In this document: in pieces, positions 5,456 to 7,253 of the stretch | How the letters are laid out: each line of letters begins with the position of its first letter | Numbering within the stretch: position 1 is the first letter of the stretch | IMG/VR virus record: IMGVR_UViG_3300030310_000016 | Strand: one strand, 5' to 3' | DNA length: 20,834 nt | Source of the DNA: a virus | Taxonomy: Duplodnaviria; Heunggongvirae; Uroviricota; Caudoviricetes | Position numbers and translations under genes: made by a program | Notes under the pieces: model-generated | Database searches by the model: none | Told to the model about the DNA's origin: nothing | The model's input: only the letters and a program-made list of their open reading frames with translations

Positions 5456-5726
5456 GTAAATATATTGGTTCTACATTGACAGGAGACTTCAACCATAAGA
5501 AGTAATCTGAATACTTGAGCAATAAATTTACTTAAGATTAATGAGCGCACCTTGCCGGACAAAGATAAACCAAGGTAACACCTTTTTTCTAGCCAGTATG
5601 TAATCAATCAGAAAGCCGCTCCATAAGAACAACAGCAAGACAATAAATTGCCATTACAGCCGCAATAGCCAGCGCACATTTGAGAACCAGCACGACTGAT
5701 CCTACCCACGTAATATGGACACAGGC

Positions 5727-6593
5727 CTAAGCGAGGTTCTTGTTTTCAAATTGTTCCGGACTGAGGCCGCCACACCAACTGTGCCGCCGCCACCGATTGT
5801 AATCACATTCGATATAATTAAACACCGTTGCCCGCATTATTTCCCGGCTGATAAAGTGTTCTCCATGGATACATTCCACTTTCAGCGAATGAAAGAAGCT
5901 TTCCACGCAGGCATTATCGTAGCAGCAACCTTTTGCGCTCATACTTCCACGCAGATTATGCCGCTTCAGTTGCGCCTGATAATCTGCTGAACAGTACTGG
6001 CCTCCACGGTCCGTGTGAACGATAACGTTCCGGGGCCTCTTACGCCGCCACAGCGCCATCTGCAGGGCATCGCAGGCCAGTTGCGCCGTCATGCGTGGCG
6101 ACATTGACCAGCCAATAACGGCACGTGACCACAGGTCAATGACCACTGCCAGATACAGCCAGCCTTCATCTGTACGTAAGTACGTGATGTCTCCTGCCCA
6201 CTTCTGGTTCGGGCCACTGGCGTAAAAATCCTGCTCCAACAGATTTTCTGACACAGGCAGGCCGTGTGCGCGGTAGCTGACCGGGCTGAACTTCCGGGAG
6301 GCCTTTGCCCTCAGTCCCTGACGGCGCAGGCTTGCCGCCACGGTTTTTACGTTAAAGGGGTAACCCTGAGCACGCAGTTCATCCGTCAGGCGTGGGGCAC
6401 CGTAACGCTGTTTTGACCGGGTAAAAGCCGCGAGGACAACGCTGTCGCAGTGTTGGCGGAACTGCTGACGCGTGCTTATCCTTGTCCGCCGCTGACACCA
6501 CGTATACCAGCCGCTGCGGGCCACCCGGAGCACGCGGCACATTGCTTTGATGCTGAACTCAGCCTGATGTTTTTCAATAAAGACATACTTCAT
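5727..6593 (-). CDS. insF: IS3 OrfB (InsF), DDE integrase-type transposase catalytic component, probably expressed as an OrfAB fusion by -1 frameshifting
   Basis: A 288-aa ORF with an rve-like core (...[42 protein letters not shown]...), overlapping the orfA 3' end in the -1 frame. Confidence 0.9.
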
Positions 6594-6889
6594 TTCAGGC
6601 GCTTCGCGAAGTATGTCGCGGCCTTTTGGAGGATAGCCAGCTCTTCATCCCGTTCTGCCAGCTGGCGTTTGAGACGTGCAATCTCGGTAGACATCTCCAG
6701 TTCACGTTCAGAAGACGTCTGCTGATTTTGCTGTTTACTGCGCCAGTTGTAGAGTTGTGATTCATACAGGCTGAGTTCACGGGCTGCGGCAGTAACACCG
6801 ATGCGTTCAGCAAGCTTCAGGGCTTCACTGCGAAATTCAGGCGAATGCTGTTTACGGGGTTTTTTACTGGTTGATACTGTTTTTGTCAT
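6590..6889 (-). CDS. insE: IS3 OrfA (InsE), HTH transposase N-terminal component
   Basis: The translation [53 protein letters not shown]... matches IS3 InsE as recalled. The ATG at 6887..6889 is the likely true start rather than the upstream GTG used by the ORF track. Confidence 0.9.
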
Positions 6890-7253
6890 GTGAGTCACCT
6901 CTGACTGAGAGTTTACTCACTTAGCCGCGTGTCCACTATTGCTGGGTAAGATCAGACACCCCCCTGTATTAGACGCACACCAGTCCTGATAAATATAAGG
7001 CTGTCTCGTCAGTGATTCAATACAACTATTGGGTATAGTTTCTGTGATTTTATTCTGTAGAAATGGAACACAACAACCAGTCACCACCAGCACTTCTTTA
7101 AATACGCCAAGTCCGACGCAAGCTAACCTTCTAGTCCGCTTTGAGCGAGAAGCGGAAGTCTCGGTCTTATTATGTTCTGAGACTAGAAGGTATTTCTTAA
7201 GGATGATTATTCGTTACGCCTACATATAATAGAAACAGAAATTTAAAGTTTAA

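Follow-up and report, generated by a model that had tools for sequence, protein, structure and literature searches.

The window analyzed here, a stretch of 20,834 nucleotides from the IMG/VR virus record IMGVR_UViG_3300030310_000016 (Caudoviricetes), contains a copy of the insertion sequence IS3 directly in front of a small open reading frame (ORF) that would encode a hydrophobic peptide of 29 residues. We consider it likely that this intact IS3 uncouples an intact 29-codon membrane-peptide gene from its promoter and ribosome-binding site: the target of transposition would have been a Rac-type lambdoid prophage, in which the element separated the GTG start codon from the Shine-Dalgarno sequence of a gene that would normally be served by a sigma-70 promoter of its own and a strong GGAGG ribosome-binding site. 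The initial annotation of the window had stated that IS3 appears to split a small hydrophobic ORF and may thereby have inactivated a membrane peptide of the type I toxin or membrane-regulator class. A small hydrophobic gene does exist at the junction, but its reading frame is intact and not split, and it is the expression signals that are displaced. The native promoter, 5' untranslated region (UTR) and Shine-Dalgarno sequence now lie 1261 bp from the start codon, which is preceded by ...GGGTAGGATCAGTCGTG, where the IS3 end by chance supplies AGGA 6 nt before the GTG. Transposase and small ORF are both encoded on the minus strand and hence run in the same direction. Inactivation would accordingly be one of expression, the native output of the gene being probably lost or reduced to read-through of the weak transposase transcript. 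As an intact ORF separated from its ribosome-binding site, the insertion would be a clean natural example of silencing.

The insertion and the 29-codon gene

The insertion as such is an ordinary event. The termini of the element (TGATC...GATCA; TGATCCTACCC...GGGTAAGATCA) form imperfect terminal inverted repeats, its length of 1258 bp and the 3-bp direct repeat are those expected of IS3, and the frameshift motif CCAAAAGG lies near the 3' end of orfA, as in the orfA/orfB frameshift of IS3. No mismatch was found over 1258 positions to the annotated copies in strains LR-27 and Ecol_224 (loci L244 and L247), which are labeled 'IS3-like element IS3 family transposase, programmed frameshift' in RefSeq. 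The termini, repeats, open frames and sequence identity thus bear out the initial description of an intact IS3 with a GAC target duplication and ends at 5697 and 6954. Length, ends, duplication and the orfA/orfB arrangement with CCAAAAGG are alike in the IS3 of E. coli (IS3 family, IS3 group), from which the element itself shows no difference; its insertion site is the sole unusual point.

Joining the flanks on the minus strand with one copy of GAC gave AGGActggtGTG followed by a 37-codon frame, exactly as first written, and this sequence is a real empty site. It occurs with 100% identity in strain WEM25, where no feature is annotated, and a 200-nt query across the junction was covered over at least 80% of its length in 1653 of 5426 complete E. 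coli genomes, which therefore hold uninterrupted alleles. In the alignment, the empty-site locus L001 has a single GAC as opposed to the two around the IS3 of the window. The exact IS3 junction of the window was found neither in the 5426 complete E. coli genomes nor in IMG/VR.

Start codons and promoters were counted in 123 loci from IMG/VR, phage records and genomes. The type I system hok/sok lies directly downstream of the small gene in 109 of these loci and a DUF1971 gene in 14, the window included. The start codon of the 29-residue form is GTG in 123/123 loci, whereas the GTG eight codons further upstream, with which the initially proposed 37-residue form begins, is absent in 111. The 15 nt before the downstream GTG contain GGAGG or GGGGG/GGGAGG in essentially all loci; in diverged alleles aligned with the joined site AGGAGG stands 5 nt 5' of this GTG, and ATG takes its place in a diverged lineage (L137, L139), with GGAGG 5 nt before it. 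The upstream codon as start of the conserved gene was ruled out by its low count and by the ATG lineage of L137. Because the downstream GTG is conserved and the upstream GTG is not, the conserved gene comprises 29 codons and its coding sequence is not split. It follows from the position of the conserved start that IS3 has inserted into the 5' untranslated spacer that separates the Shine-Dalgarno sequence from the GTG, and not at codon 8 as had been proposed. A predicted promoter of the form TTGAA[TG]-17-[CT]ATATT is located 37 nt upstream of the start in 107 of the 123 loci and is also present in the diverged locus L136; a promoter scan of the empty site independently listed TTGAAT-17-TATATT. 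The Shine-Dalgarno sequence of the window lineage is a run of six G (6959-6964). Some database proteins (P0008, P0012) are fusions of the upstream frame with the peptide over these G residues, a sign that the tract may vary in length.

The predicted peptide consists of one strongly hydrophobic helix followed by a short charged tail (grand average of hydropathy 1.81; best 19-residue hydropathy window 2.70). The stops or frameshifts that would speak against a gene were not encountered in uninterrupted loci: all 123 alleles are open except for one stop-loss. Over the last 24 codons, Nei-Gojobori comparisons of five diverged lineages gave ratios of nonsynonymous to synonymous substitution rates (dN/dS) of 0.18-0.45 at dS of about 0.5-1.4, values that are biased downward because the homologs were found partly via protein similarity; the P38-type lineage was recovered through the hok anchor alone and not by protein similarity. 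In the two shifted frames over the same nucleotides, the proportion of synonymous differences (pS) was about equal to that of nonsynonymous differences (pN) or lower. Conservation biased toward synonymous changes is therefore a property of the 29-codon frame. An overlapping Cys-rich frame, previously thought to leave the coding assignment uncertain, was rejected. Although this frame can be read through the ORF in the main lineage without a stop, no start codon is fixed for it, a stop and an indel break it upstream in L003, and its pS is about equal to pN or lower; constraint is confined to the 29-codon frame. Judged from these substitution patterns, the 29-codon frame is a real coding gene under frame-specific purifying selection.

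The opposite view, that the block is conserved as DNA or RNA (as hok control region, recombination border or small RNA (sRNA)) and that the open frame is incidental, is very improbable. In the main E. coli lineage the degree of conservation hardly differs between the non-coding leader and the ORF, but every lineage has a GGAGG-type Shine-Dalgarno sequence, and this despite leaders in L135, L137 and the P38 type that have no relation to the E. coli leader. Frame-specific purifying selection at dS of about 1 and a start codon that is invariant, or exchanged from GTG to ATG at the same position, also argue against an incidental frame, whereas the usual lack of annotation of the region in RefSeq would agree with one. 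Eight loci keep only the last six codons beside hok, from which it follows that hok does not need the ORF; conversely, the ORF is intact without hok in the DUF1971 lineage.

Homologs of the peptide were sought by a word-indexed protein search, with a 47-residue in-frame extension as query, and by a hidden Markov model search of 1.84 billion representatives; together these yielded no more than a small family. The profile search returned 16 hits, one of which could be traced to an organism (Escherichia), the others being located beside hok in prophage contexts. Homologs with an organism name came from Escherichia or Shigella, and their start differs among gene callers, often giving 37 residues. 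A scan of GTDB returned only E. ruysiae, Shigella flexneri and three short contigs of metagenome-assembled genomes that are probably mis-binned. Diverged members (MLIIKGVLAIVIVVAIYCLVVTLWERLSD; MLAALKGFVAILAVVAIYCLVVVLMDRLSD; M(LV)LVLKGALAIAAVAVIYCLVIVLMDRIFE; and MSDDISLAMEGALAVVAVVGVYCLVVFLMDRLGN, for which the DNA was recovered) have 29-34 residues and keep the hydrophobic helix, a YCL motif and the tail (D/E)RL(S/G)(D/N). The gene is carried by about 31% of the complete E. coli genomes (1675/5426). In RefSeq it is called only occasionally, the same 90-nt ORF being WP_000960667.1 in STEC719, and the region is mostly left unannotated. No significant match of the peptide was obtained in Pfam, NCBIfam, PHROGs or PADLOC, and its sequence strings were not found in the literature searched. 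In size and in its single transmembrane helix the peptide resembles small membrane proteins below 50 residues (AcrZ, MgtS, CydX and the products of phage 'moron' genes), with which it also shares a predicted promoter of its own inside the prophage and a frequent omission from annotation; the difference from these proteins is that its family is restricted to Escherichia/Shigella prophages. The gene is an uncharacterized addition to the small phage-encoded membrane proteins and belongs to no protein family. Almost never annotated, it is a concrete candidate for the small-protein and toxin-antitoxin fields.

Comparison with type I toxins

Carried further, the initial annotation would make the small ORF a 37-residue type I toxin, held in check by an antisense RNA, whose coding sequence IS3 had split at codon 8. 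We regard this model as improbable. The peptide does share several traits with type I toxins (Hok, Ldr, Ibs, TisB, ShoB, ZorO, DinQ): it is a hydrophobic membrane protein of fewer than 60 residues with one very hydrophobic helix and a charged tail, it is encoded on a mobile element and it adjoins hok/sok, a true type I system. It differs from them in that it has neither homology to them nor a detectable antitoxin RNA nor a stable inhibitory mRNA structure. Searches of Pfam, NCBIfam, PHROGs and PADLOC gave no significant match of the peptide to Hok, Ldr, Ibs, TisB or any other family of toxins. Rfam gave no family match over the module, while sok was detected next door as a positive control, and scans for promoters and terminators did not reveal a conserved antisense promoter or terminator across the module. 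The conserved upstream block showed no complementarity to the mRNA above that of shuffled sequences. A structured mRNA with a sequestered ribosome-binding site, as would be expected of such a toxin, was likewise not seen, as folding energies relative to dinucleotide shuffles had z scores of +0.91 and +0.27 and the minimum-free-energy structures differ between alleles. The Shine-Dalgarno sequence of the peptide gene is strong and exposed, and its predicted promoter is good and looks constitutive, quite the opposite of the tight translational silencing typical of type I toxins. Moreover, the P38-type gene stands in tandem behind another small ORF and has a different leader, so that no leader-targeting antitoxin is conserved.

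Two candidate antitoxins were considered and rejected. A divergent sRNA encoded in the upstream block, which would start from the promoter-like site TTGATT-16-TATAGT on the opposite strand, pairs with the mRNA no better than shuffled sequences, and the block is missing in the diverged lineages L135 and L137; divergent cargo such as abiH is the more likely user of this site. An inverted repeat to the Shine-Dalgarno and start region in L006 lies in an allele-specific flank and is not conserved.

The 37-codon frame itself is present in the allele of the window and in 11 other loci, where the upstream GTG is preceded by AGGA at a distance of 5 nt, and it is the form often predicted by gene callers; on the other hand, the upstream start is lacking in all diverged lineages as well as in most alleles of the main set. 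The existence of two independent IS3 insertions, 3 bp apart, which both uncouple the gene from its expression signals, would also suit a toxin. Since no toxin-family match was obtained and neither an antisense RNA nor a structured mRNA was found, membership of the peptide in the type I toxins is unsupported, and we use putative small phage membrane protein as a working description.

The ORF is not part of hok/sok either. It lies outside the sok model, has no match to PF01848 and is separated from hok by the hok promoter. The latter is predicted as TTGGCG-17-TAGAAT and begins about 13 nt after the small-ORF stop, no terminator was found between small ORF and hok, and the Rfam sok/hok-leader model sets in 43 nt beyond the stop. 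In comparison with the hok/sok loci of lambdoid prophages (hokD/hokW type), the peptide gene is an immediate upstream neighbor with separate predicted expression signals; either of the two genes can be present where the other is missing. The window does hold a true type I system elsewhere, as indicated by a match to RalA, the sRNA antitoxin of RalR/RalA of the Rac prophage, at 19100-19278 on the minus strand (225 bits; gathering threshold 170).

Recurrent IS3 insertions around the small ORF and hok

The insertion in the window is not the only one of its kind. In DETEC-E601 an independent IS3 has inserted in the same orientation 3 bp upstream, again between AGGAGG and GTG, with the duplication GTT and in a hok-linked allele. 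In E. coli genomes (L242-L249), at least nine distinct IS3 sites fall into a region of about 1 kb that includes the small ORF and hok; sites outside the Shine-Dalgarno-to-start spacer are given in Table 1. At the 5' end of the hok mRNA, the duplications are ATC and GTC and the site is inside a GAGGC..GCCTC inverted repeat. An IS3-like end (TGATCCTACCCTCGTAATATGGACAC...) was also seen in L137 (1876-2134) and L139 (1881-2067), where the homolog MLIIKGVLAIVIVVAIYCLVVTLWERLSD is followed about 50 nt past its stop by this end in the place where hok is expected.

Such clustering means that the region is an IS3 hot spot, a repeated target of selection, or both. In the mechanism that we propose, the cluster would reflect a regional hot spot, possibly reinforced by selection against the expression of hok and of the peptide. 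Tentatively, the peptide would then be a membrane-active accessory ('moron') phage protein whose expression carries a cost, and not a classical RNA-controlled type I toxin. A neutral account is also possible, if short of even odds, namely that the module and the hok region are an IS3 hot spot and that the peptide, as a harmless accessory membrane protein, can be lost without consequence. The sites occur in both orientations, and the identical position at the hok 5' end has been hit in opposite orientations, which speaks for target preference. The IS3-like end beside the diverged homolog in L137-L139 and the intact state of the gene in nearly all carriers would also agree with the neutral account. 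Most of the sites, however, strike functional elements: the hok promoter or 5' end, the hok leader, the hok coding sequence and, twice, the spacer between the Shine-Dalgarno sequence and the start of the peptide gene. Chromosomal hok loci of E. coli K-12 are reportedly inactivated by nearby IS elements (Pedersen and Gerdes 1999), which is usually read as selection and would not fit a purely neutral account.

Besides the downward bias of the dN/dS values, several points weigh against the reading in which IS3 uncouples a costly peptide gene from its expression signals. Within the translation-initiation region an IS3 is present in only about two of roughly 1700 carriers. Nearly all carriers have an intact gene, so that any cost of its expression must be modest. 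For the insertion 28 nt beyond the ORF, which belongs to a lineage that lacks hok, no functional consequence is obvious, and a neutral hot spot may explain the whole cluster. The promoter and transcription start of the small ORF are consensus predictions. Finally, the particular allele of the window may give rise to an N-terminally extended product of 37 residues. Whichever reading applies, the cluster is a natural data set in which the targeting of hok-type loci by IS elements can be set against selection at these loci.

The prophage locus and its neighboring small genes

Table 1. Features at the IS3 junction of the window and further IS3 sites mapped near the module in other genomes.
Feature	Position	Strand	Remarks
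Convergent DUF1971 gene	5027..5389	+	Pfam E = 2.6e-26; in the place taken by hok/sok in most relatives
Conserved small ORF, 29 aa + stop, MLVLKCALAIAAVMAIYCLAVVLMERLSD	5604..5693	-	Predicted single-pass membrane peptide; intact in the window
GAC target duplication, ORF-proximal copy	5694..5696	.	GTC on the ORF strand; 3 nt directly 5' of the GTG start
Intact IS3	5697..6954	-	1258 bp; termini and inverted repeats; IS3 annotation beneath BLAST matches
IS3 orfB, InsF-like	5727..6593	-	Open; 288 aa
IS3 orfA, InsE-like	6590..6889 (/6898)	-	Open; 99 aa from ATG (99/102 aa)
GAC target duplication, distal copy	6955..6957	.	3-bp direct repeat, as for IS3
Conserved upstream block, main E. coli lineage	6958..7156	-	5' UTR, predicted promoter and about 110 nt more; ends at hairpin 7135-7156
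Displaced Shine-Dalgarno sequence of small ORF	6959..6964	-	GGGGGG in this allele, GGAGG in most
GTG start of the initially annotated 37-aa form	6976..6978	-	GTG 12, GTA 102, CTA 7, other 2 (n = 123)
Displaced predicted sigma-70-type promoter of small ORF	6992..7020	-	-35 TTGAAT 7015-7020, 17-nt spacer, -10 TATATT 6992-6997
PD-T7-3 anti-phage defense protein, 471 aa	7321..8736	-	PADLOC PDLC04108, E = 3.5e-168; full length
IS3 site	28 nt after ORF stop, DUF1971 lineage		Ecol_224 group
IS3 site	First ~15 nt of hok mRNA		LR-27 and STEC719; same position, opposite orientations
IS3 site	hok leader		2017.06.04CC and CUVM53
IS3 site	hok coding sequence		E21845/O/A
IS3 site	abiH cargo		ABWA45; mapped, among 34 genomes with an IS3 end near the module

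The window is a Rac-type lambdoid prophage with RecE, ydaS/T-like genes, an IstB/DnaC-like ydaV, DUF1627 and DUF1367. Upstream of the small gene is a cargo slot of variable content, which in the window is occupied by the gene for PD-T7-3, an AT-rich gene without a match in Pfam, PHROGs or NCBIfam. In other loci the cargo is AbiH, AIPR, DUF262 with an ATPase, the retron Ec67, HigBA or an operon with a major facilitator superfamily (MFS) transporter. The small gene is thus a fixed border of a variable prophage slot for defense genes and can serve as a landmark for locating defense cargo in lambdoid prophages. On its other side, homology of the DUF1971 lineage breaks at the -35 element of hok. 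The module is carried by the functional phages Tritos, Evi, mEp460_ev081 and HannyBb.

Two further elements were observed on the cargo side. A promoter-like site on the plus strand at 7012-7039 (GTGATT at 7012-7017, 16 nt, TATAGT at 7034-7039; TTGATT-16-TATAGT in most alleles) stands back-to-back with the predicted small-ORF promoter and may drive divergent cargo, for example abiH in other strains; in the window it would run antisense to PD-T7-3. Between 7125 and 7190, a short way past the end of the PD-T7-3 gene, the hairpin at the upstream border of the module is enclosed by the two arms of a perfect 11-bp inverted repeat (ACCTTCTAGTC / GACTAGAAGGT, 44 nt apart), which is a candidate terminator or recombination border.

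The slot before the hok promoter was also inspected in a hok-anchored sample of IMG/VR loci (L140-L241), anchored on the hok mRNA 5' end, for example with the 200 nt before GGGTGCTTGAGGCTATCTG. In other prophages this slot holds two families of small transmembrane ORFs, here called B and C, that are unrelated to the present family. Family B (MTWPEA(L/F)TTVGIAMAVALVVYSICRWG) has 27 residues and a strong AGGAGG and occurs in 88 phage records, many of them Stx phages. Family C (MEK(V/I)DVLIL..GVFMAVMCIEYWR, in fuller form MEK(V/I)DVLIL(I/M)FG(Y/H)INALFLGVFMAVMCIEYWR) has 32 residues. One lineage contains family B and the present family in tandem. In the eight hok-anchored IMG/VR loci where just six terminal codons (MDHLSD*) of the small ORF are left beside the hok promoter, these codons abut an unrelated gene at its 3' end (...GRPLIKIGQLHYGKEEKE*), which marks a recombination joint inside the ORF. 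A preprint surveying Hok mentions many IS-related proteins around hok loci and does not mention small ORFs upstream. It is conceivable, though we consider it unlikely, that the peptide is a membrane-active effector which cooperates with Hok or tunes its action at the edge of the defense hot spot and that it forms, together with families B and C, a class of hok-associated mini-proteins. If so, it could be a toxin-like effector of abortive infection, a partner of Hok or an immunity peptide, and the recurrent IS3 insertions in its translation-initiation region would represent selection against peptide expression.

Apart from the module, the late-gene side of the prophage has a match to the Rfam family STnc100, a gammaproteobacterial sRNA, at 1876-2062 on the minus strand (86.6 bits; gathering threshold 47).

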